From Patescibacteria group bacterium (GTDB lineage Bacteria > Patescibacteriota > Patescibacteriia > UBA1558 > GWA2-36-10), in NCBI GenBank assembly GCA_041665505.1, contig JBAYIR010000006.1:1707-65706 (forward strand): DNA of 64,000 nt, in the 5' to 3' direction. The translations under genes were made by a program, and so were the position numbers. The notes under the pieces are model-generated. The model saw only the letters and a list, made by a program, of their open reading frames with translations, had not been told where the DNA came from and ran no database searches. Shown one piece after another: positions 3,116 through 24,939 of this stretch (the stretch's first letter is position 1; every line of letters begins with the position of its first letter).

Positions 3116-3212
3116 AGTTTATTTTTTTTGATTATCTTCTCTTGCACCCATTACTACAAAAACTATCAGGAGAATGACAAAAATTAAAATTCCGATAATT
3201 ATCATATAATTT

Positions 3213-3734
3213 TTATTTTAAAATTATTTTAGCTACAGTCCTAGCAACTTTGTCTGGCCTTAGTTCGGAAGTGTCTACAATTGGACAATTTGACTGTTTA
3301 AACATTTTTTCCATTTGATCCAAGATATAGATATTGTCATCAATAAAAACGTTAATTGTTTTGCCAATAACTTTTTGAGATTCATCAAAAATTCCGTCTT
3401 TAGTATATCTTTTTTTCAAACGCTTACGAATTATTTCTGGCTGGGCGGACAAAAGTATTTTGACAATTTCTGGAGTTTTGTAATCTGGGAAGTCAGTCAA
3501 TTTAACAAAACCACAGACAACTATACTTTTATTTTCCTTTGTTAAGCTAGCCTCTTTTTCTAGCCAGTATTTTATCTCAGAAATTCTCCAATTACTATCA
3601 GCTTTTTCTGGCACACCTCTTTCGTCAAAATCATGTATTTCAAATTTTTCTATTGGGAGCAATGAACTCAAATAGGGTATTATTGAAGATTTACCAACGC
3701 CGTTGACTCCACTAATAAAAAATATTTTATTCAT
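3213..3734 (-). CDS. P-loop NTPase (AAA-family/nucleoside-kinase-like)
   Basis: 173 aa. Walker A 'GVNGVGKSS' at the N-terminus. ATGA overlap with the upstream gene. Confidence 0.5.
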   Translation of the reverse strand: MNKIFFISGVNGVGKSSIIPYLSSLLPIEKFEIHDFDERGVPEKADSNWRISEIKYWLEKEASLTKENKSIVVCGFVKLTDFPDYKTPEIVKILLSAQPEIIRKRLKKRYTKDGIFDESQKVIGKTINVFIDDNIYILDQMEKMFKQSNCPIVDTSELRPDKVARTVAKIILK

Positions 3735-5247: not shown

Positions 5248-5276
5248 TTGACAAATAGTCTTTTATATTATATATT
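5248..5276 (+). promoter_or_regulatory. consensus sigma70-type promoter (TTGACA-17 bp-TATATT) driving the GC-rich gene 5391-5798
   Basis: Exact TTGACA at 5248-5253, a 17-nt spacer, and TATATT at 5271-5276, all in AT-rich DNA. Confidence 0.5.
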
Positions 5277-5390
5277 GTTCAGTTGTCAATCACGGCAGCA
5301 CTCAATTTTCGCTGGAGAAGCTCTAGTACTGTCTTTTTTCTGCAGGCCGCAGAATTATAGACAGGCTAGGTTAACAGGAAAGGACCAAGT

Positions 5391-5798
5391 ATGTTCTCTA
5401 CAGTCAGTTGGAGTGTCCCCGGGACCACAGATCCCGAATCCTGCAACATCTTCGAGATCATGGCCAGAAGTGCGCGTGGTGAAAGCACCACGGCGTCGGA
5501 GGTCTTCATCTCTTTTCACTACTTGCCCGAGTCCTTGGCGGTTGAGATTGCCAAACATCTCAACTCCCAGCAGGCCAGGATGTTCTGGAGGATTCGGGAG
5601 ATCGACCCCATGCAGTTCCAGCCCCGCCGAAAGTGGTGGAAGCCCTTCACCAAGCCGCGCGTGGTTACCTGGCGTGATTACGCCAACCATCTCGGCTTCT
5701 ATGATGACCAGTCATGGTGGGACGCCTGCAAGGGCATCTCGCATGAGGTACTGAGCTACCTGGAGGGCTACCTGGAGACTAGTAATCAGTCGAGCTAA
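5391..5798 (+). CDS. hypothetical protein, GC-rich orphan gene (no TM, no known motif)
   Basis: 135 aa ORF with 'AGGAAAGGACC' about 10 nt upstream. Its GC content is far above the flanks. The overlapping ORFs at 5248-5754 and 5355-5690 are off-frame artefacts. Confidence 0.5.
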   Translation: MFSTVSWSVPGTTDPESCNIFEIMARSARGESTTASEVFISFHYLPESLAVEIAKHLNSQQARMFWRIREIDPMQFQPRRKWWKPFTKPRVVTWRDYANHLGFYDDQSWWDACKGISHEVLSYLEGYLETSNQSS

Positions 5799-5847
5799 AC
5801 ACAGCTCGAGCGAAGTCCGTAGATTGATGTCGTTTCAGACGACTGCG

Positions 5848-5887
5848 AAGGAGGGGGAGCTATTGGCACCTCTCCTTCTTCTTTTTG
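5848..5887 (+). terminator. rho-independent terminator (GAAGGAGGGG...CCTCTCCTTC + TTCTTTTTG), copy 1 of a shared module
   Basis: 10-bp GC-rich stem with a 12-nt loop followed by a T-tract. It is preceded by 'CAGACGACTGC', which is identical to the copy at 9781-9828. Confidence 0.6.
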
Positions 5888-5943
5888 ATTTTAATATTAT
5901 TATAACAAGCTAGTTAGTAGCTAGGTTTTACAAAAAAACTAGC

Positions 5944-8167: not shown

Positions 8168-8196
8168 TTGACATTTTGTGATAAATATTGTATATT
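8168..8196 (+). promoter_or_regulatory. consensus sigma70-type promoter (TTGACA-17-TATATT) for the GC-rich operon 8288-9772
   Basis: Exact -35 and near-consensus -10 boxes with a 17-nt spacer. An SD 'AAGGGAAGGAG' lies before the ATG at 8288. Confidence 0.5.
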
Positions 8197-8287
8197 TGGT
8201 CGTTGTGATAATTTTGTCCCGTCACGTTGGTTCTTCACATAGAAGTTTCGAACAGTCCCAAACAGTCCTAAAGGGAAGGAGACAGCG

Positions 8288-8830
8288 ATGTTTCGTTACT
8301 TGCAGAGCGGCAAGGCTTTGGTCGCGATGTTTGTGACGAGCGTGATTGTGATGATCACCTCGTCTTTCGTCCTGATCAACGCCGGCCCGGAGAACTCTCG
8401 GGTGGATTTTTTGACCATGGAAGGTCACGATTTGTTGAGCCTGCCGTCGGTCAAGCTGGCCTATGACTTCGCGCTGGCCGACAGCGTGCTCACCGAGAAC
8501 ATCGAGTTTCTCGAGCGGCAAGGGCTCGATCAGGGCCAGGTAGCTTTCTATGGCGACCTGTCCAAGTACTATCAGGAGCTTTGCGGGCTCCGCCAGCAGG
8601 TCCAGACTTTGGCTCTGGAGTACCCTGATTCGCTCAGTGGTAACCACAGAGCCAACGAGGAGCTCAAGCAGGTGGCCAAGCCTGTCATGGCTGCGGTCAT
8701 CAATTTCAGATCGTCTTGGCTGCTGGCTCACGCCATGCAGCATGGACTCAAGTTCTGGAGCATGGCTTTCGGGCTGTCGCTTCTCTTCTTCATCTACGGC
8801 CTGATCTGCTGGAAGCAAGGCCGCTTCTAG
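8288..8830 (+). CDS. hypothetical bitopic membrane protein (N- and C-terminal TM helices, ~130 aa soluble middle), GC-rich
   Basis: 180 aa with a strong RBS. GC-rich codon usage is consistent along the frame. The antisense and off-frame ORFs here are artefacts of the GC-rich DNA. Confidence 0.55.
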   Translation: MFRYLQSGKALVAMFVTSVIVMITSSFVLINAGPENSRVDFLTMEGHDLLSLPSVKLAYDFALADSVLTENIEFLERQGLDQGQVAFYGDLSKYYQELCGLRQQVQTLALEYPDSLSGNHRANEELKQVAKPVMAAVINFRSSWLLAHAMQHGLKFWSMAFGLSLLFFIYGLICWKQGRF

Positions 8831-8845
8831 CTCAAAGGAGCACAC

Positions 8846-9772
8846 ATGTTCATCGACAGTCCGACCTACAGCCGAAGCAAATCGCCACACTACAGGTTTT
8901 GGCGCTGGACATACCAGAACAGTCTCTGGAACCGGTCGGTGCCAAATTCCTACCAGACCTCACTCTGCCTGTACTGGCAGCGGATGTTCTGGGTGGGGGT
9001 GCTGATCTTGCCGGTGTTGCACCTCCTGTACTTCGCCACCGCTGCTGTGGTCTACGAGCTGCTCTATAAGAGAGTGGTCAGGCCCGTGGTTAAGTTTGAT
9101 TTCCTGGCCGCCGTGGTCATCTGGCTGATGATTATGGGCATGGTGATCTGCGGGGAGGTGGAAGTACTTTTGTTCTACCTGGTGGTAGTGTGTAGTTGCG
9201 GCATCGTCGGCTTGCTTGCCATTGTTTTCTTCTGCATCTACGCCAAGAGAGCCGTGGAGTGGTTGCTCAAGAGGGTCATCGGACCTTTTCTCTGGGAGCC
9301 ATTCATTTGGCTCTGTGATTTCAACTGGCAGGTTTATCGACGGTACTACAACCGTCGACATCCTCTGCCGGACGAGGAGTGCACGATCAAGGGTTACAAC
9401 CAGCTCATGGTTCACAGCCTGTTCTGGCTGCAATCTGTTGTGGTGGCTCTGGCCTTGCACTTCGGTAGTGGTCAGGCTCATCCCGAGCTCTGGGGCTTGG
9501 CCTTGAGCTGGATCATCTGGTACGGGCTGGCCTTGCTGCTGGTTAGCTTGGTCATCAACCTGCTCATCAACCGGCACTACGACAAGCTGGACAAGGAGCG
9601 GTACTACGAGCTTTACCCGGAAAAGCGGCCGGGCAAGAAGCTGAAGATCAAGAGGGTGAAATCTAAGCCCTATCGCGAGCCTTCGCGGTGGGCGCACTGG
9701 AGGTACGACTTCAACCAGTGGCGTAAAGCCACCAAGGAGAAGGTCTGCCCTCTGGTGAAGTTCGTGGACTGA
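8846..9772 (+). CDS. hypothetical polytopic membrane protein (~6 TM) with a basic C-terminal tail, GC-rich
   Basis: 308 aa, tightly coupled to the upstream gene by a 15-nt gap. Hydrophobic helices alternate with short loops. Confidence 0.55.
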   Translation: MFIDSPTYSRSKSPHYRFWRWTYQNSLWNRSVPNSYQTSLCLYWQRMFWVGVLILPVLHLLYFATAAVVYELLYKRVVRPVVKFDFLAAVVIWLMIMGMVICGEVEVLLFYLVVVCSCGIVGLLAIVFFCIYAKRAVEWLLKRVIGPFLWEPFIWLCDFNWQVYRRYYNRRHPLPDEECTIKGYNQLMVHSLFWLQSVVVALALHFGSGQAHPELWGLALSWIIWYGLALLLVSLVINLLINRHYDKLDKERYYELYPEKRPGKKLKIKRVKSKPYREPSRWAHWRYDFNQWRKATKEKVCPLVKFVD

Positions 9773-9790
9773 TCTCGTCGAGACGACTGC

Positions 9791-9828
9791 GAAGGAGGGG
9801 TGCTAATGACCCCTCCTTCTTCTTTTTG
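9791..9828 (+). terminator. rho-independent terminator (GAAGGAGGGG/CCCCTCCTTC + T-tract), copy 2 of the shared module
   Basis: Perfect 10-bp stem with a 9-nt loop followed by TTCTTTTTG. The 5' context 'AGACGACTGC' is identical to that at 5838-5847. Confidence 0.65.
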
Positions 9829-9866
9829 CTTAAAATAAAAATTTAATTAATTTTGGGCTTTTAATA

Positions 9867-9895
9867 TTGACAATATTGTTGTTATATGATATAAT
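9867..9895 (+). promoter_or_regulatory. consensus sigma70 promoter (TTGACA-17-TATAAT) for 9963-11582
   Basis: Perfect consensus hexamers with a 17-nt spacer, sitting in an AT-rich intergenic island inside the GC-rich region. Confidence 0.5.
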
Positions 9896-9903
9896 ATTTT
9901 GTT

Positions 9904-9933
9904 AACCAAAATGACCAATTCTGGTCTTTGGTT
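9904..9933 (+). ncRNA. 5'-leader RNA hairpin motif, copy 1 (AACCAAA-AU-GACCA-AUUC-UGGUC-UUUGGUU)
   Basis: Nested inverted repeat between the promoter and the RBS of 9963. It is homologous to the element at 10591-10622. Confidence 0.4.
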
Positions 9934-9962
9934 GGTACACTCACAGCTTTTTTAAGGAGGCC

Positions 9963-10586
9963 ATGATGGTTAGACTGTTGTTCTGGTTCCAAGTCGTCAT
10001 GGCTTGGATTTATATGGTGCCTCAGGTGGTGCAAATCACCAGAGGTAAAACTAACGGGTTGACCCTAGCGATGTGGGCGATTATGATGGGCTATCTTTTG
10101 GTCAGTCTCTCGTTGGCACTGCTTGCTTGGCGAGAGAAAAAAGAAAAGATTCGCCTGTATACCGTTATTGTCTTCGCACAGTGGGCTGTGTTTGTCTTGG
10201 TGTTGTTTGTTATGAGCATCAAGTCAGTTCACTGGTCTGCTGGTGACACCGTAGTCTGCCTGGCAGTCAGCATCCTTTCAATCATCACGGTAATGCGAAA
10301 TGGTCTGAAAGACCCCATGACCCGTGCTTGGTTGTCTGTTTGGTGTAAGGGTGTTCCACAACTTTGGGCGGCTTATGTAATGATGACTGCCCACAGCACA
10401 GAATGGCTACATCCACTCGCACTTTTTGCAAGCAACGCAACTTCGATTCCCAGGCTCGTTCAAGTCTATCTGCAAGGTAGGCGAGGTGGCTGGGACAGAG
10501 CGACTAAGGGCCTGTTTCTTGGTGAGACCGCCAATGTCGCCACTTGGACAGTGGTAACTATTGTGTGGTTTGTCCTAAGATTCTAG
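9963..10586 (+). CDS. PQ-loop-repeat-like membrane protein (SemiSWEET/LAB_N-like), GC-rich
   Basis: 207 aa with about 6-7 TM helices. Carries 'MVPQVVQITRGKTNGLTL', which resembles the PQ-loop signature (PQ...K/R.T..LS). SD 'AAGGAGG' before the ATG. Confidence 0.45.
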   Translation: MMVRLLFWFQVVMAWIYMVPQVVQITRGKTNGLTLAMWAIMMGYLLVSLSLALLAWREKKEKIRLYTVIVFAQWAVFVLVLFVMSIKSVHWSAGDTVVCLAVSILSIITVMRNGLKDPMTRAWLSVWCKGVPQLWAAYVMMTAHSTEWLHPLALFASNATSIPRLVQVYLQGRRGGWDRATKGLFLGETANVATWTVVTIVWFVLRF

Positions 10587-10590
10587 ACCT

Positions 10591-10622
10591 AAACCAAAAT
10601 GGTCAATTCCGACCACTGGTTT
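10591..10622 (+). ncRNA. RNA hairpin motif, copy 2 (AAACCA-AAAU-GGUC-AAUUCC-GACC-AC-UGGUUU)
   Basis: Same architecture as 9904-9933. The inner stem is changed GACCA/UGGUC to GGUC/GACC, a compensatory substitution. Confidence 0.4.
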
Positions 10623-10647
10623 GTCCTTAGAAAGGGGTGTCTCGAAG

Positions 10648-11067
10648 ATGAGAGAGAAACTGTTGGTTACGTCGCTGATGATGCTCGTCATGGTCAGCTT
10701 CACTGGTTGCAAACGGACTGTTGTTCAGCAGTCTGGCGAGCTGACCGAGTCGGCAGTGGTCGACGAGGTGATTTTCAGCCCATCATCGCACGGCTCTTCG
10801 GTCGGACCGACCATGTCAGGCGATGGTGGCATCGGCATCGCGGTGACTTCGGTCAGTATACCGGAGAAGTACGCAGTCGTGTTCCGTTGCCAGCACGGCA
10901 AGTTCGTCGTCCAGGGTACCAGCCAGAAATACAAGGAGCTCTGGGAGCGCTTGATCCGTGGCCAGGCCGTCACTGTTTACTACAAGGAAACCTACCGTGT
11001 CGTGTACGAAGGAGAAGAGCTCCTTTCCCGCGAGCTCATTGGTTACGATTTCCTCACCGCTAGGTAG
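10648..11067 (+). CDS. putative lipoprotein, GC-rich
   Basis: Begins 'MREKLLVTSLMMLVMVSFTGC', a signal peptide plus lipobox Cys. An RBS 'AAAGGGG' lies upstream. The track ORF from 10621 starts on TTG inside the hairpin. Confidence 0.5.
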   Translation: MREKLLVTSLMMLVMVSFTGCKRTVVQQSGELTESAVVDEVIFSPSSHGSSVGPTMSGDGGIGIAVTSVSIPEKYAVVFRCQHGKFVVQGTSQKYKELWERLIRGQAVTVYYKETYRVVYEGEELLSRELIGYDFLTAR

Positions 11068-11093
11068 TGCCACTGTCCATTCAGGAGGAAGAG

Positions 11094-11582
11094 ATGCTGA
11101 CGAAATACAGTCTGTCGAAGTTCGATCGTGGTAGCGCGGCCTATGTGGTCGCGCATGCTCGTTGGAAGCGGAGTAGGGGTCGTGGGCCTTCCATGTCCTA
11201 CCTCACCGAACGCAACCCGGTGAAAGCACTGGTCAACGCTCAGACTTTCCTCGTGGCGTTCGGTCGTCGACAGGAGCTGGAGGAAATGCTTCAGTATCTT
11301 CCGCTCACGACGCCCAAACAGGCTGCGGCGATGGACAAGCAGACGATCGAGCTCCACATTCGCCGCATCGCCATCGAGTGCAAGTCTGAGACTGAGCTTG
11401 CTCAGCGTTTGACCGATGAGCTCGGCTTCAGTGGTGCTCTCATCAACTGGTACGAACCGACCGACCAAACCGGCGTCGAGGCGCGAGATCTCGTTCGTGC
11501 CTTCGGTGGTCTCATCTCCAAAAACGGGGCCATGGTCAGTGTGATGATCTACACTCTGAGTGATGATGTGATCATCGTGTGA
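11094..11582 (+). CDS. hypothetical cytoplasmic protein, GC-rich
   Basis: ATG at 11094 follows SD 'CAGGAGGAA'. About 162 aa with no TM helices. It is translationally coupled to the lipoprotein gene. Confidence 0.5.
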   Translation: MLTKYSLSKFDRGSAAYVVAHARWKRSRGRGPSMSYLTERNPVKALVNAQTFLVAFGRRQELEEMLQYLPLTTPKQAAAMDKQTIELHIRRIAIECKSETELAQRLTDELGFSGALINWYEPTDQTGVEARDLVRAFGGLISKNGAMVSVMIYTLSDDVIIV

Positions 11583-11641
11583 TTCTGGCGGTCGCGCCAG
11601 AACAAGAGGTCAAGGCTTTCTCCTCAGAGAGAAGCTATCGA

Positions 11642-11680
11642 GGGCCGCTGACGTAAGTCGGCGGCCCTTTCATTTTGTTT
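11642..11680 (+). terminator. rho-independent terminator (GGGCCGC...GCGGCCC + T-rich)
   Basis: 7-bp GC stem with an 11-nt loop followed by TTTCATTTTGTTT. Confidence 0.5.
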
Positions 11681-11750
11681 AAAATAAAAAAATCTGGCCA
11701 AAGCCAGAATTTTGCTAGTGGATAATTTATAAGAAGACAATTTAAAATGA

Positions 11751-11781
11751 GGCTGCAACCGTGCTACGGTCGCAGCCTCAT
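11751..11781 (-). terminator. hairpin terminator downstream of csrA (GAGGCTGC...GCAGCCTC)
   Basis: 8-bp stem. On the minus strand it is followed by ATTTTAAATT. Confidence 0.4.
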
Positions 11782-11807
11782 CTGATCTCTAGTCCCGCAA
11801 GGGCCTT

Positions 11808-11996
11808 CTAGACGCTAGCAGAGCTAGCTTTCTTTTTGGCCTCTTTGTCGGCCCGGACTTCTTCTCGGTCGACAGGCACGTCATCGGGAGCTTCAATGCC
11901 GACCTGCACTTGGTCGCCTCTGATGTCGGCGATAATGATGACAATGTTGTCACCAATGTATATTTTTTCGTCTTTTTTTCTGGACAGGACCAACAT
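11808..11996 (-). CDS. csrA: carbon storage regulator CsrA (RNA-binding global regulator)
   Basis: 62 aa beginning 'MLVLSRKKDEKIYIGDNIVIIIADIRGDQVQVGIEAPDDVPVDREEV'. This closely follows the CsrA consensus (MLILTRR.GE...IGD...V.VL...G..V.IGI.AP..V.V.REE). The coding DNA is GC-rich. Confidence 0.65.
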   Translation of the reverse strand: MLVLSRKKDEKIYIGDNIVIIIADIRGDQVQVGIEAPDDVPVDREEVRADKEAKKKASSASV

Positions 11997-12065
11997 GGCT
12001 TCCTCCCTGAACTTGAGTCTTCCTTGAATCTAGCCTTGAGGCTAGGGCGAAATGAACCGGGGATT

Positions 12066-12094
12066 ATTATAGATTTTTTGGATGTTTTTGTCAA
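12066..12094 (-). promoter_or_regulatory. consensus sigma70 promoter (TTGACA-17-TATAAT) for csrA with a GGA-rich leader
   Basis: Minus-strand -35 at 12094-12089 and -10 at 12071-12066. The leader contains a CTAGCC-UCAA-GGCTAG hairpin and several GGA motifs before the SD. Confidence 0.45.
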
Positions 12095-20591: not shown

Positions 20592-21173
20592 TTATTTTAT
20601 AAATGGATTGGGCATATCAAAGACAATATGAGTAGTTTGAGTGTTGATTTGTTCCAGAGTGACACCATATTTGGCTGCGTATTGAAAATCAACTGAGCCA
20701 AAAATAGCTTGGGAATAATCAAAGTCCAATAATTTGGCTACTACTTGGATAGCTTGTTCATTTGGTCCTTCTATTTCGACAAATGGTTCTAGAAATGGCC
20801 ACTCATCAATAGTTATTTCTACTTGACCAATTTTCCAGAGCTCGCGTTTGCTCTCTTGGTAAGCTATTTCTTGACAGCCAATGGTATTTATTATTTCTCT
20901 AGCATCTTCAAAGCTACTGACAGTCAGGCAAGTTTCTTTTTGGTCTTCAATATGTTTATTATCTTTGATGATTTTGACGCTCATGGTTACTTTGTCAGCT
21001 TCTTGCCTGACTCTGATCCAGCCGCCTTTGATTTCATACCCTTTGGGAAAGTGCCAGACATATCTTTTCATCAGAAATTCTGGGTAGATCATTTGGGCAC
21101 CTGCTTTTTTGAGCCGAGAGCGGATATCGTCTTTATCAATATTTGTAAAACTAGCTTCGTATTCTATTTGCAT
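20592..21173 (-). CDS. CYTH-domain-like protein (class IV adenylyl cyclase / triphosphatase fold)
   Basis: 193 aa beginning 'MQIEYEASF'. This resembles the CYTH ExExK start, and there are acidic clusters later. Confidence 0.4.
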   Translation of the reverse strand: MQIEYEASFTNIDKDDIRSRLKKAGAQMIYPEFLMKRYVWHFPKGYEIKGGWIRVRQEADKVTMSVKIIKDNKHIEDQKETCLTVSSFEDAREIINTIGCQEIAYQESKRELWKIGQVEITIDEWPFLEPFVEIEGPNEQAIQVVAKLLDFDYSQAIFGSVDFQYAAKYGVTLEQINTQTTHIVFDMPNPFIK

Positions 21174-22009
21174 AAGTCTTTTAGTAATTGGTTGATATAA
21201 GTAAAGTCTTCATCTCCTTCTATCACGATATCAAAGTTTTTTAAAAAGTATTTTTTTTGCTGGGGTGTATTATAATTTAAAAAACCAATTTTAATCAGAT
21301 TATCATAATCAAAACCTTTGATCATATCTACATCAGCTAGGCTATCTCCCAAGAGTAGGACGTTTTTTCTGTTTTTAATCTGTTGGTATATTTTGGGGAA
21401 ATCTTTAATTAGAGTTTCGTCTTTACTTAAAGAGTGGATAATAGGTTCTTTGATAGCTATAGCCTGTCCAGCTTTGTTCCAAACTAAGGAGCTAGTAATA
21501 TAGTGAATATTAGAATAATTTTTTTTGTTTTGTTTAAAATAAATTTTGACGGCTTCGCCCACGCCACTGGCTGACAATATGACTAGGGGAATATTTTTTC
21601 TTTGTAAAGTATTTAAAAATGAATTAAGTCCTTTTCTAAATCGAATTTGTTTATCGGAAGCAATAAGCTCTAAATCTTTTTTATTAAGGCCAGATTTTAT
21701 TAATAATTTTATGTGGCTGCGCCACCATTTGTTCATAGCAGTTTTTTTGGCTGCCAAGCTTAATTGCGGGTCAATTTCTAAAGGGTGATATTTATCAAAG
21801 AGAGCATGAGCTTTTTGGGCATAGTCTTTACTTAGGTAGTGACCATTTCTAAGTATAGCTATCAGTGAAGGGACTTTTTGTCCATCAGCATAAGCATAGG
21901 TCAAAGTGCGATCAAAATCACTCAAAACATGTAAGTTGTCTGGACCGGCTACTTTTATTTTAGCTATAGCTTGTTTTAGCTTTTTCTCGTGGCTAATTAT
22001 AACTGACAT
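21164..22009 (-). CDS. HAD-superfamily hydrolase (pyrimidine 5'-nucleotidase-like)
   Basis: 281 aa. 'VLSDFDRTLT' DxDxT motif I, plus 'LLLGDSLAD' motif IV-like. Confidence 0.5.
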   Translation of the reverse strand: MSVIISHEKKLKQAIAKIKVAGPDNLHVLSDFDRTLTYAYADGQKVPSLIAILRNGHYLSKDYAQKAHALFDKYHPLEIDPQLSLAAKKTAMNKWWRSHIKLLIKSGLNKKDLELIASDKQIRFRKGLNSFLNTLQRKNIPLVILSASGVGEAVKIYFKQNKKNYSNIHYITSSLVWNKAGQAIAIKEPIIHSLSKDETLIKDFPKIYQQIKNRKNVLLLGDSLADVDMIKGFDYDNLIKIGFLNYNTPQQKKYFLKNFDIVIEGDEDFTYINQLLKDLCK

Positions 22010-22128
22010 AGTAGTATAGAAATTATAGCATTTTTGTAAGGAAAATAAAAAGTTTGCCCGATATTAACCTCAGATAACATTTTTTATTTTTTTATGTTAA
22101 AATATATAATATAAATTAATATTTATTT

Positions 22129-23892
22129 ATGAAAAAAACACTAGTTATTTTCAGCCTATTTTTAGGGCTTTTATTTTGTCCAAATATTAGTCAGGCCGAG
22201 AGCGATAAAATCTCAGATTATAAAGTGGATATTTTTGTAAATCAAGATAGTAGTATCAAGGTAGAAGAAATAATTGCTTATGATTTTGGTGATAATTATA
22301 AGCATGGTATTTATCGGGAGATACCTTTAAGTGATTCTGTCCTCTGGCCGACAAAACAATTGGATATTAGTGATATTTCAGTCCATGATCAAAAAGGACA
22401 GCCTTATCAATTTGATGTATCAACGGCCAATAATTTAAAAACAATCAAAATAGGTGATCCCAATCAGACTGTTTCTGGAGAGCAGGTCTATGTTATCAAA
22501 TACCAAGTAAAGCAAGCTATAGATTATTATGATGATCATGATGAGCTTTATTGGGACGCCATTGGTAATAATTGGATTGTGCCGATTTTAAATTCACAGC
22601 TTAGTTTGCATTTTTATGAACCTTTAGCCATTGAGCAGTTTAAGCTAGAGTGTTATTTTGGACAGTTTGGTAGTAGCAATAAATGTGTAGATAAAAATAT
22701 TTATTCTGGTACTAAGGATAAATTGACAGACTTTGTTTTTCAAGCTGACCAGCTTAGTGCTAATTCTGGGGTGACTGTCCGGTGGCAGTTTGATAAAGGT
22801 TTAGTTTTAGAGCCAAATGCTAAGCAAAAAGTAATATTATTTTTAAAACAATATGCTTTGTTATTTTTGCCATTTTTAGCTTTGATACTGATGTTTTTTT
22901 ATTGGTATAAACGTGGTCGTGATCCAAAAGGCCGAGGCACTATCATTGCTCAATATGAGCCACCAGCTGATTTGATGCCAGCTGAAGCTGGTATTATCTT
23001 GGATGAGAAAGCTAATAGTCACGATATTTCAGCAGAGATAATACTACTAGCTATTTGGGGTTATATAAAAATTAGTCGTATAGAAAAAACTGGCCTTTTG
23101 TCATCAACAGATTATTTGTTAGAGAAAATAAAAGATGAAAATGATTTGCCTCGGGGGTATCAAAAAGAATTAATGGCCAATTTGTTTAGTAATTCTAGCG
23201 CAGACAAAAAACCTCAAAAAATAAAAAATATAGAATTAACTACCGGGGCTACTTCTAGGGTGTTGATGTCTGATTTTAAAAATAAAGCTTACAAATGGAT
23301 TAAAATTGTAGAAGATGGTCTATATAAATCAGTGGTGGATAAAAAATATTTTCCTAAAAATCCACACAAGATTAAATCAATTCATGCTTTTATTGTGGCT
23401 TCACTTTGTGCAGTCTTGATAGGATTTTTCCGCGACGTAAGTGTTTTTGCTAATCTGGCTAATCTTTTAGCTACTGGTTTTACTTTTGTGATACTTTATA
23501 TTTTTAGTCTAAAGATGCCTCGTCGCACTAAAGAAGGGGTCTTAGTTAAAGAATATCTTTTGGGCTTAAAGGAATATATCAATGTAGCAGAAAAAGACAG
23601 AATTGCTTTTCACAATGCTCCAGAGAAAAATCCAGCCTTGTTTGAAAAATTACTGCCTTATGCCATGGCTTTTGGTTTAGAAAAAAAATGGGCCAAGCAG
23701 TTTGAGGGTATTTATACAGAAGAGCCCAATTGGTACCATGGTGCATCTACTGGCGCTTATTTTAGTGCTGCTTCCTTTGGTGATAGTTTAAAGAGTTTTA
23801 GTAGCAGTTCTGGTTCGACATTGTCTTCCTCTTCTAGCAGCAGTGGTGGTGTTGGTGGAGGTGGCGGAGGCGGCGGTGGGGGTAGTTGGTAA
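22129..23892 (+). CDS. DUF2207-family membrane protein with a C-terminal poly-Gly tail
   Basis: 587 aa. Signal peptide, a large extracytoplasmic domain, several TM helices, and a C-terminal 'SSSGGVGGGGGGGGGGSW'. Confidence 0.6.
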   Translation: MKKTLVIFSLFLGLLFCPNISQAESDKISDYKVDIFVNQDSSIKVEEIIAYDFGDNYKHGIYREIPLSDSVLWPTKQLDISDISVHDQKGQPYQFDVSTANNLKTIKIGDPNQTVSGEQVYVIKYQVKQAIDYYDDHDELYWDAIGNNWIVPILNSQLSLHFYEPLAIEQFKLECYFGQFGSSNKCVDKNIYSGTKDKLTDFVFQADQLSANSGVTVRWQFDKGLVLEPNAKQKVILFLKQYALLFLPFLALILMFFYWYKRGRDPKGRGTIIAQYEPPADLMPAEAGIILDEKANSHDISAEIILLAIWGYIKISRIEKTGLLSSTDYLLEKIKDENDLPRGYQKELMANLFSNSSADKKPQKIKNIELTTGATSRVLMSDFKNKAYKWIKIVEDGLYKSVVDKKYFPKNPHKIKSIHAFIVASLCAVLIGFFRDVSVFANLANLLATGFTFVILYIFSLKMPRRTKEGVLVKEYLLGLKEYINVAEKDRIAFHNAPEKNPALFEKLLPYAMAFGLEKKWAKQFEGIYTEEPNWYHGASTGAYFSAASFGDSLKSFSSSSGSTLSSSSSSSGGVGGGGGGGGGGSW

Positions 23893-23910
23893 CATTTTAA
23901 ACAAAAAAAG

Positions 23911-23938
23911 AAAGGAGTCCGCGGTCGGACTCCTTTTC
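23911..23938. terminator. bidirectional rho-independent terminator (GGAGTCCG-CGGT-CGGACTCC flanked by A- and T-tracts)
   Basis: 8-bp GC stem. An A-run lies upstream and a T-run downstream. It serves the convergent DUF2207 gene and the small peptide gene. Confidence 0.65.
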
Positions 23939-23968
23939 GCACTCGTGAGCTCTGTGAGAAGCTCGCGT

Positions 23969-24142
23969 TCAGCTCACCGGCGTGTTCCAAGCACTGATGA
24001 TGTTGCCGACGAAACTCGCCAGCACCAGTACCACGGCGACCGCCATGACCTTTTCGATGAGAGAAGTCTCCTGCCACTTCACCTGAAACCATTTCAGGAA
24101 GCTGTGTGCAGGAGTTTCCTCCCAATTGTATTTGACCTGCAT
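23969..24142 (-). CDS. 57-aa GC-rich tail-anchored membrane peptide (type I toxin-like), not in the ORF track
   Basis: The reverse complement reads 'MQVKYNWEETPAHSFLKWFQVKWQETSLIEKVMAVAVVLVLASFVGNIISAWNTPVS'. SD GAGAGGTAAG lies upstream. It sits in a ~250-bp GC-rich patch within AT-rich DNA. Confidence 0.4.
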   Translation of the reverse strand: MQVKYNWEETPAHSFLKWFQVKWQETSLIEKVMAVAVVLVLASFVGNIISAWNTPVS

Positions 24143-24196
24143 TAACGTCTTACCTCTCGTTGGAGTGAGTCAGCTGGGGAACTTTGTATCTATAGT

Positions 24197-24225
24197 ATAG
24201 TACCATATTTTTGATATTTTGTCAA
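24197..24225 (-). promoter_or_regulatory. consensus sigma70 promoter with an extended -10 (TTGACA-17-TGgTACTAT) for the small peptide gene
   Basis: Minus strand. -35 TTGACA at 24225-24220 and -10 TACTAT at 24202-24197, with a TG dinucleotide upstream. Confidence 0.45.
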
Positions 24226-24261
24226 TATAGTTCAAGAGTGGGGATATATTTATTGAACAAA

Positions 24262-24298
24262 CAAAAAAACCGCCCCGAGCGTAGTCGAGGGGCGGTTT
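24262..24298 (-). terminator. rho-independent terminator of the peroxiredoxin operon (CCGCCCC...GGGGCGG + T7)
   Basis: 7-bp GC stem followed by TTTTTTTG on the minus strand, immediately after the stop at 24310. Confidence 0.65.
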
Positions 24299-24309
24299 AA
24301 AATAATATT

Positions 24310-24939
24310 TTATATTTTACCTACCAAATCTAAACCTGGTTTTAAAGTATCTTGACCTGGTTGCCAGTTGGCTGGGCAAACTTGATCACCGTATTTGGCA
24401 ACAAATTGAGCAGCTTGGAGTTTTCTAATCAGTTCATCACTACTTCTACCTATACCATTGTCATGGACTTCCATAGTTTTTAGTATGCCTTTAGGATCAA
24501 TGATAAATGTACCTCTTAGAGCCAAACCTTCTTCTTCAATCAGGACATTATATTTATAAGATATTTCATGAGTGGGGTCAGCTAGCATGGGGAAGTTTAC
24601 TTTTTTGATAGTTTCTGATTCATCGTGCCAAGCTTTATGGACAAAAATAGTGTCAGTTGAAACTGATAATATTTCAGTATTTAACTTTTTTATTTCTTCA
24701 TAGCGACTGGCCAAATCACCCAACTCAGTTGGGCAGACAAAAGTAAAATCAGCTGGGTAGAAGAATAAAATTACCCATTTACCTTGGTAGTCAGATAATT
24801 TAACTCTTTTGGTTTTATCTTCATGATAGACTTCTGCCTCAAAACTGGGGGCTAGGCTACCAATTTTTAGTTCATAGTTGTCACAACAACCATGGCCACA
24901 ACAATCTTCGCCTTTGTCACAACAATTTTTTTCTTCCAT
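24310..24939 (-). CDS. peroxiredoxin (AhpC/TSA 2-Cys family) with a Cys-rich N-terminal extension
   Basis: Peroxidatic 'FTFVCPTE' and a resolving Cys near the C-terminus. The N-terminus reads 'NCCDKGEDCCGHGCCD'. Confidence 0.7.
   Translation of the reverse strand: MEEKNCCDKGEDCCGHGCCDNYELKIGSLAPSFEAEVYHEDKTKRVKLSDYQGKWVILFFYPADFTFVCPTELGDLASRYEEIKKLNTEILSVSTDTIFVHKAWHDESETIKKVNFPMLADPTHEISYKYNVLIEEEGLALRGTFIIDPKGILKTMEVHDNGIGRSSDELIRKLQAAQFVAKYGDQVCPANWQPGQDTLKPGLDLVGKI

Follow-up and report, generated by a model that had tools for sequence, protein, structure and literature searches.

Morons are independent genetic units with their own promoter and terminator and a deviant GC content, and HK97 gene 15, the first moron to be reported, codes for a small protein of the inner membrane that acts in superinfection exclusion (PMC3594210). 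Small proteins also occur in type I toxin-antitoxin (TA) systems, which by definition consist of a small protein and a repressing small RNA (sRNA) (PMC11264685), and among the small bacterial membrane regulators that have been reviewed for Gram-positive bacteria (PMC10730256). In Patescibacteria, genomic islands and horizontally transferred genes represent compositionally deviant accessory DNA, often with envelope or defence functions (PMC12455944). Here we describe a 57-codon open reading frame (ORF), hereafter ORF57, in a 64,000-nucleotide stretch of DNA from a Patescibacteria group bacterium (contig JBAYIR010000006.1; the whole stretch is hereafter called the window). We consider, with moderate confidence, that ORF57 is a real, self-contained gene for a 57-residue single-pass membrane peptide, carried as a moron-like cassette of foreign composition, and that its role is accessory and not that of a TA toxin. 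The gene is judged to be fast-evolving and dispensable.

Like a phage moron, ORF57 is a lone gene flanked by a promoter and a terminator of its own, both of which are kept in a locus from another species (L017). The GC content of the unit differs from that of its neighbours (52% versus 35%), the unit sits between genes that are arranged differently in relatives, and the predicted product is a small membrane protein. A sister cassette is present in one strain and absent from another, which is a further likeness to morons. Unlike phage morons, ORF57 lies outside any recognisable phage or prophage and shows no sequence similarity to gp15/YebO, and an exclusion function such as that of HK97 gp15 would be assigned to it by analogy. 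The cassettes described here also differ from their host in translation signals (Shine-Dalgarno (SD) sequences versus none), and three of them share a terminator type. As in the Patescibacteria islands (PMC12455944), the DNA is compositionally deviant and accessory and is found in an ultra-small bacterium. However, the units here range down to ~350 bp and are complete expression cassettes; they are orphans without an identifiable donor and without an associated integrase or transposase.

A compact transcription unit between convergent genes

The window has an overall GC content of 35% and belongs to a Patescibacteria/Parcubacteria-type genome, whose nearest genomes are metagenome-assembled genomes of Parcubacteria. 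Two convergent gene sets meet at a GC-rich patch: a DUF2207 membrane-protein gene on the plus strand (22129-23892) and a minus-strand cluster with the order NifU-SOD-patatin-AhpC, in which AhpC occupies 24310-24939. The neighbours of ORF57 (AhpC, SOD, NifU and DUF2207) are housekeeping genes. The inferred ORF57 transcript (24190-23905, ~285 bp, minus strand) accounts for the 52% GC given above, and a GC-rich patch in AT-rich DNA, as described in an earlier note on this sequence, is confirmed. ORF57 itself occupies 23969-24142 on the minus strand and encodes MQVKYNWEETPAHSFLKWFQVKWQETSLIEKVMAVAVVLVLASFVGNIISAWNTPVS. Its position and translation had been given exactly in that note, which called the frame unannotated; NCBI lists it as the hypothetical protein WCV71_03845.

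A sigma-70-type promoter is located at 24197-24225 (minus strand) and consists of TTGACA (24225-24220), a 17-nt spacer and the extended -10 element TGG-TACTAT (24205-24197). The consensus scan matches 10 of the 12 hexamer positions and also the extended -10 TG, in agreement with the extended -10 promoter proposed earlier. Judging from the promoter position, transcription would start near 24190 and produce a 48-nt 5' untranslated region (UTR; 24143-24190, minus strand, 48% GC). This leader holds the block CCAACGAGAGGTAAGAC (24147-24163), which occurs only once in the window. Inside the block, an SD-like GAGAGG (24153-24158, minus strand) is located 10 nt 5' of the ATG with a duplex energy of -7.2 kcal/mol against CACCUCCUUUC, and the description of this SD as strong holds.

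On the 3' side, the minimum-free-energy fold contains a predicted hairpin, GUGAGCU...AGCUCAC (23945-23977, minus strand), that covers the stop codon and the 3' UTR. The motif ACGAGTGCGAAAAGGAG (23930-23946, minus strand) forms the entry to an intrinsic terminator (23899-23936, minus strand) with an 11-bp stem, AAAGGAGTCCG/CGGACTCCTTT (23936-23911), and the T-tail CTTTTTTTGTTT; 3' of the stem, the minus strand reads CTTTTTTTG. Counted from the stop codon of DUF2207, the T-tail starts after 7 nt and the hairpin stem after 19 nt, and this terminator probably also ends the convergent DUF2207 transcript. The earlier description of a bidirectional terminator stands for the minus strand, the only strand scored, where the terminator is strong, whereas the T-tract on the plus strand is short. 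Two copies of an 11-nt direct repeat, TTTTTTTGTTT, bracket the whole ORF57 unit as an exact match. One copy is the T-tail of the AhpC terminator (24259-24269, minus strand), and the other is the T-tail of the unit itself (23899-23909); the repeat is of low complexity, and the pair alone is weak evidence. No other copy of the patch or the peptide is present in the window, and the gene is single-copy.

Coding potential and predicted topology of the ORF57 product

Since structured RNA genes classically appear as GC-rich patches in AT-rich DNA, an RNA reading was tested first. At the gathering threshold, Rfam found only two tRNAs in the whole window, both outside the patch, and at E values up to 10 nothing within 23800-24350 scored above about half its gathering score. 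ARAGORN found no tmRNA. A known structured RNA (6S, SRP, RNase P, tmRNA or a riboswitch) was rejected on these Rfam and ARAGORN results, and the codon periodicity favours a coding sequence.

The length of the frame alone is not significant, since an ORF of 50 codons or more is present in 23% of the transcript shuffles, and in the patch two further frames are open over 100-122 codons. The GC contents of ORF57 at the first, second and third codon positions (GC1/2/3) are 0.50/0.36/0.72, and the GC3-GC2 gap of 0.36 has P~2e-4 among the shuffles holding an ORF. The same test gives a gap of 0.25 with P~0.005 for the ORF of L017. The hydrophobic 19-mer from residue 32 of ORF57 has a mean Kyte-Doolittle value of 2.44, which was reached by none of 4594 shuffled ORFs; the hydrophobic 19-mer begins at residue 31-32 in both the window and L017 peptides (P~9e-4 for L017). 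The single-sequence AlphaFold2 model of ORF57 shows helices at residues 11-24 and 28-53 with a predicted local distance difference test score (pLDDT) of 82, the second helix corresponding to the predicted transmembrane (TM) segment. The GC3-GC2 gap, the hydrophobic segment and the modelled helices argue for coding, and the 57-codon frame is most likely a coding sequence.

The peptide therefore seems, as far as these models indicate, to be a single-pass protein whose C-terminal helix inserts into the membrane. In the tail-anchored topology described in the earlier note, the single predicted C-terminal TM helix is retained, whereas the N-terminal helix is only weakly amphipathic, with a hydrophobic moment of at most 0.36. 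With regard to orientation, the N-terminal parts of both orthologues have a net charge of 0, and there are two positive charges in the tail of the L017 peptide.

Homologues and a counterpart in another species

A word-indexed search of 5.8 billion proteins and a full phmmer search of 1.84 billion representatives matched ORF57 within its own species only: to itself and to a truncated call from another strain (L001). One further match, P0003 (E ~1e-4), is a 495-aa tandem-repeat translation aligned over 24 residues and was judged uninformative. No family was found for ORF57 in Pfam (E up to 1), NCBIfam, PADLOC, PHROGs or PDB sequences, and the protein search found no homologues of the L017 peptide either.

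The counterpart was found by position. We collected 33 DUF2207 loci from other species, of which 30 had downstream sequence that could be scanned. The idea of a linkage to DUF2207 was rejected, since a convergent small gene was present in only one of the 30 scanned loci, L017. The flanking proteins of L017 are 72% (AhpC), 76% (NifU) and 47% (DUF2207) identical to those of the window, and the gene order is the same, with AhpC followed by the small gene and the convergent DUF2207 gene, in the same orientation and with the same transcript length. The intergenic patch reaches 55-59% GC versus 40% for the locus. The promoter, TTGACA-17-TGC-TACAAT, is alignable with that of the window, and the leader block is conserved (CCGACGAAAGGAAAGAC versus CCAACGAGAGGTAAGAC in the window), as is the terminator, which has an alignable counterpart. 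The hairpin at the ORF57 stop codon has, by eye, an equivalent in L017 with a different sequence. The L017 ORF encodes 55 residues with a GC3 of 0.75, its helix starts at the same residue as in ORF57, and the helix-coding parts of the two genes align in frame without gaps. Loss of the frame in relatives, which the earlier note had raised, is not what is seen between these species, since L017 keeps a 55-codon ORF with the same layout. Between the window and L017, the frame and the layout are preserved and the sequence is not. This recurrence of the whole layout is more than would be expected by chance.

The loci that are closest by their flanking proteins, L037 and L041 (NifU 87-91%), lack a gene of this kind after AhpC and also have a different gene order downstream. 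An empty site with the AhpC|DUF2207 order was not found among the relatives examined.

A class of GC3-rich cassettes in the window

ORF57 is not the only GC-rich unit in the window. A stand-alone unit on the plus strand (5248-5890; 56% GC, GC3 0.76) has the promoter TTGACA-17-TATATT, the SD GGAAAGGA and an AAGGAG...CTCCTTCTTCTTTTTG terminator, and encodes a Trp-rich orphan protein of 135 residues (5391-5798) without a match in Pfam, PHROGs, NCBIfam or viral contigs. An island at 8-12 kb contains two back-to-back GC-rich operons on the plus strand (8168-9830 and 9867-11670), each with a near-consensus promoter and its own terminator. From their sequences, the orphan proteins of the island look like membrane proteins, a lipoprotein and a cytosolic protein, and among the sister cassette ORFs as a whole, most resemble membrane proteins or a lipoprotein. 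A minus-strand unit (11693-12094) with a strong SD, located where the island ends, carries csrA (11808-11996; Pfam CsrA E = 1.5e-21). The GC-rich stretches at 31.8 kb and 33 kb were rejected as cassettes; they are conserved Gly/Ala-rich parts of 2-oxoacid:ferredoxin oxidoreductase.

The composition of ORF57 agrees with that of the island, the comparison suggested in the earlier note. The island genes have GC1/2/3 of ~0.5/0.4/0.75, and the codon-usage log-likelihood ratios are +0.68 bits/codon for ORF57 and +0.77 for the L017 gene, compared with +0.6 to +0.85 for island genes and -0.7 to -0.9 for native genes. A near-consensus promoter, itself in AT-rich DNA, precedes every GC-rich unit in the window (5248, 8168, 9867, 12094 and 24225); those at 9867 (12/12 plus TG) and 12094 (csrA, 12/12) match the consensus fully. 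An SD of -8 kcal/mol or stronger (range -8 to -11) is present in all five GC3-rich ORFs of at least 120 residues, against one of 56 native ORFs. Native leaders contain only A and T, and in many of them the -10 box is located ~10-20 nt ahead of the ATG, an arrangement that points to very short or absent leaders. Likewise, the native genes of L017, L037, L041 and most other Parcubacteria loci among L002-L047 lack an SD, and the GC-rich extra genes have one. The absence of native SD sequences is consistent with published work in which about half of the 16S rRNAs of Parcubacteria are reported to lack the anti-SD motif (PMC9297842).

In the units that end at 5884 and 9825, the terminators are identical over 20 bases before the stem and also share the 3' arm. 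The ORF57 terminator, entered through ACGAGTGCGAAAAGGAG, carries the same motif, ACGA(G)TGCGAA(AA)GGAG...CTCCTT(T)CTTTTTTTG. This pattern has three matches in the window and none in 100 shuffles, with the qualification that it was derived from those three sites. It has no match in the loci of other species, and the one further match is the L001 copy from the same species.

Recombination within repeated terminator tails appears to account for the gain or loss of the cassettes. Contig L122, which comes from the sample that also holds L001, JGI 3300037810, matches the window at 98.2% over 8808-9841 and then continues directly at 11669, so that exactly the GC-rich unit of three genes at 9842-11668 is missing. 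The breakpoint falls within a 20-nt repeat of the two terminator tails, TTTTGYTTAAAATAAAAA, and the ORF57 unit is bracketed by its T-tail repeat as this sister unit is by its own. Since the neighbouring island gene 8846-9772 shows a ratio of nonsynonymous to synonymous polymorphism (pN/pS) of 0.18 between strains, it is under purifying selection. The csrA genes of the window and L122 are 89% identical in DNA, with 11 nonsynonymous and 6 synonymous differences. A phage origin was rejected, since IMG/VR contained no relatives of ORF57, of gene 8846-9772 or of the ORF at 5391-5798. Seven viral matches to a 16-mer of the terminator lack a hairpin context and were judged to be due to chance, and PHROGs gave one weak 'membrane protein' match, in the island only.

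CsrA binds GGA-type motifs. Since native mRNAs lack SD/GGA motifs, the CsrA encoded here might act mainly on the GC-rich cassettes. A specific enrichment of CsrA sites in the ORF57 transcript was rejected (five GGA versus ~4.6 expected, by hand count).

Evidence against a self-contained peptide gene and rival explanations

Several observations weigh against reading ORF57 as a self-contained gene for a membrane peptide. BLASTP detects no similarity between the window and L017 peptides, and since there is neither peptide similarity nor any homologue, the orthology of the two genes rests on position and on the flanking non-coding blocks. In L001, which is 99.8% identical to the window (six differing sites in 2797 bp), codon 4 of ORF57 (24133, minus strand) is changed from AAA to the stop codon TAA. 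The protein is thus dispensable in at least one strain, and this allele, a single event, fits a gene that is dispensable or counter-selected. One more of the six differences lies in the ORF57 unit, and the other four lie in flanking genes, whose proteins remain 100% identical. The SD may not work in the host, since the native genes do without one and the 16S rRNA gene lies outside the window. No phage genes are located near ORF57 and no viral relatives are found, and the word moron describes its anatomy only. A GC3 of ~0.73 is kept in two diverged AT-rich genomes and calls for an explanation: either selection maintains it, or the cassette has been replaced repeatedly at the site. In addition, the transcript is more stably folded than its shuffles (z = -4.4, terminator included) and the UTRs are also GC-rich (48-55%), and the RNA itself may have a role.

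The stable fold and the GC-rich UTRs also speak for a structured regulatory RNA of ~285 nt, perhaps with a dual function, whose 5' block (CCRACGARAGGWAAGAC) or 3' hairpins act on RNAs or proteins, the ORF being secondary. The unit has the anatomy of an sRNA gene, being intergenic with a strong promoter and terminator and GC-rich in AT-rich DNA, UTRs included, and its non-coding ends are much better conserved between the two species than the ORF. The tolerated nonsense allele, the csrA gene in the island and the GGA-type motifs in the cassette SDs also agree with this explanation. However, both species show a three-base periodicity, and in the same frame, and the ORF length, the start position and the TM segment are preserved. 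There is no match to an Rfam family, all of the sister cassettes are clearly coding, one of them with the pN/pS of 0.18, and much of the folding z-score is supplied by the terminator. The two diverged sequences are too few for a covariation analysis. We consider a regulatory RNA unlikely.

The L001 allele, found where all four substitutions in neighbouring genes leave the proteins unchanged, is also compatible with a functionless remnant of horizontally acquired GC-rich DNA that is decaying and may still be transcribed. The composition and signals are foreign to the genome, no homologues are found, and the gene is missing from the closer relatives L037 and L041. We give this explanation little credence, since the promoter, SD, ORF, TM segment and terminator are all intact in two species whose flanking proteins are 47-72% identical. 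The GC3 of ORF57 and the L017 gene (0.72-0.75) has not drifted to that of the host (0.26-0.38), which argues for a maintaining force, and purifying selection acts on the only sister cassette gene open to such a test.

The earlier note had placed a type I toxin beside another small membrane effector in its title. In the former case, the antitoxin sRNA would be encoded elsewhere or transcribed from a promoter missed by the scan, and the mRNA would stay silent until the antitoxin decays and the peptide damages the membrane. ORF57 resembles Hok/Gef, Ldr, TisB, Fst, TxpA/BsrG and the C. difficile CD toxins (PMC11264685) in being a hydrophobic peptide of fewer than 60 residues with one predicted TM helix, encoded by its own transcription unit with a GC-rich, structured mRNA (the z-score above), and in being a lineage-restricted, fast-evolving orphan. 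The SD is partly paired in the predicted structures, and the nonsense allele is as expected from counter-selection of a toxin, but fits any dispensable gene equally well.

On the other hand, the absence of an obvious antitoxin RNA, already remarked on in the earlier note, persists. No antisense promoter with at least 9 of 12 matches lies within the unit, although consensus scans can miss promoters, and a relaxed scan of both species gave weak antisense sites only, none of them conserved. ORF57 matches no toxin family, and no antitoxin RNA family in Rfam is significant, the best being RalA with 14 bits against a gathering score of 170. The predicted ensembles do not show a conserved sequestration of the SD: in the window it is paired within a local hairpin, and in L017 with the 3' tail. 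In most characterised type I toxins an N-terminal helix is followed by a charged tail, whereas the helix of ORF57 is C-terminal and has no charged tail. The gene is single-copy, and its near-consensus promoter, with no visible repressor or antidote, would be lethal if the product were toxic. The sister cassettes encode ordinary-looking envelope proteins and not TA pairs. With no antisense or adjacent sRNA promoter found in either species, no family match and no conserved hiding of the SD in the predicted structures, the toxin label is not supported and a type I toxin seems improbable; 'other small membrane effector' was the better half of that title.

Proposed role of ORF57 and of the cassettes

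Under the preferred reading of ORF57 as a membrane-peptide gene, the signals seen in the sequence suggest that the transcript would be made from the unit's own strong promoter, independently of the neighbouring operons, and that translation would use the unit's own SD. The C-terminal helix would insert into the cytoplasmic membrane. The peptide would not be essential; as an accessory factor, it would most likely bind or modulate a component of the envelope, in an exclusion- or protection-type role. This role is proposed because of the analogy with small moron-encoded membrane proteins and the envelope-like ORFs of the sister cassettes. Small membrane regulator proteins such as AcrZ, MgrB and MgtS resemble ORF57 in size, in their single TM helix and in their accessory, non-essential character. 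They differ from it in having native composition, specific regulation and known partner complexes, whereas the composition of ORF57 is foreign.

Taken alone, ORF57 is one more orphan small membrane protein, and its value lies in its context. The more interesting lead is that this genome, in which native genes have no SD, contains GC3-rich cassettes equipped with both an SD and a consensus promoter. These cassettes may represent a class that has not been described before, in Parcubacteria that have lost the use of SD sequences, and ORF57 may be its smallest member. Each cassette would consist of a consensus sigma-70 promoter, a strong SD and a GC3-rich orphan gene, mostly for an envelope protein, and three have the AAGGAG...CTCCTT terminator. 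The foreign composition and signals would be actively maintained, because the high GC3 persists in two diverged AT-rich species, and the cassettes could form a translation layer under separate control, with CsrA as a candidate controller. In that case, the island-encoded CsrA would meet GGA-type SD motifs almost solely on cassette mRNAs. We regard this class as a tentative proposal, possible but rather doubtful.

Ultra-small bacteria of the Patescibacteria type are generally thought to depend on host cells. If the cassette signals work, the cassettes would represent a distinct expression class in such a bacterium, and they would be good candidates for factors in host interaction or phage exclusion. 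Should the signals be inactive, the cassettes would be an example of the persistence of foreign DNA in streamlined genomes.

Accessory genes and rearrangements in related loci

The end of the AhpC operon seems to be variable and resembles a hotspot for accessory genes, since four other relatives (L038, L043, L046 and L047) carry unrelated, SD-bearing small genes with raised GC directly after AhpC. In L038, this gene encodes a Cys-rich, zinc-ribbon-like protein of ~120 residues (3229-3681, minus strand). On the plus strand, basic proteins of 72-89 residues are encoded in L046 (3150-3620) and L043, and hydrophobic peptides of 57-60 residues in L043 and L047 (3090-3290); the L043 region covers 3190-3670. 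A ~105-bp tandem duplication in L046 spans the SD and the start of the small gene. Raised-GC, SD-bearing genes are located elsewhere in L037 (4648-5470, minus strand) and L002 (9158 onward, plus strand), and extended -10 promoters are also seen before raised-GC genes in L037 and L038.

The order in L041 is AhpC-UMPH-CYTH followed by the convergent DUF2207 gene, and that in the window (20592-24939) is AhpC-ORF57 followed by the convergent DUF2207 gene and then UMPH-CYTH. Judging from this gene order, either the DUF2207 gene or the UMPH-CYTH pair has moved between the two. In the AhpC terminator region of L017 (6150-6270), ~110 bp of extra sequence with G-run/C-run hairpins (CCCCTTAACAGGGGAGG...CCCCCTTGTCAAAGGGGG...) is present that does not occur in the window.

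The GC-rich stretch at ORF57 extends into the poly-Gly codons in the last part of the DUF2207 gene (23800-23890). The DUF2207 proteins of the window (23800-23892, plus strand) and of L002-L034 end in a poly-Gly tract followed by SW. This tract gives the DUF2207 gene a GC-rich tail at every locus, and it accounts for part of the GC peak adjoining the patch.

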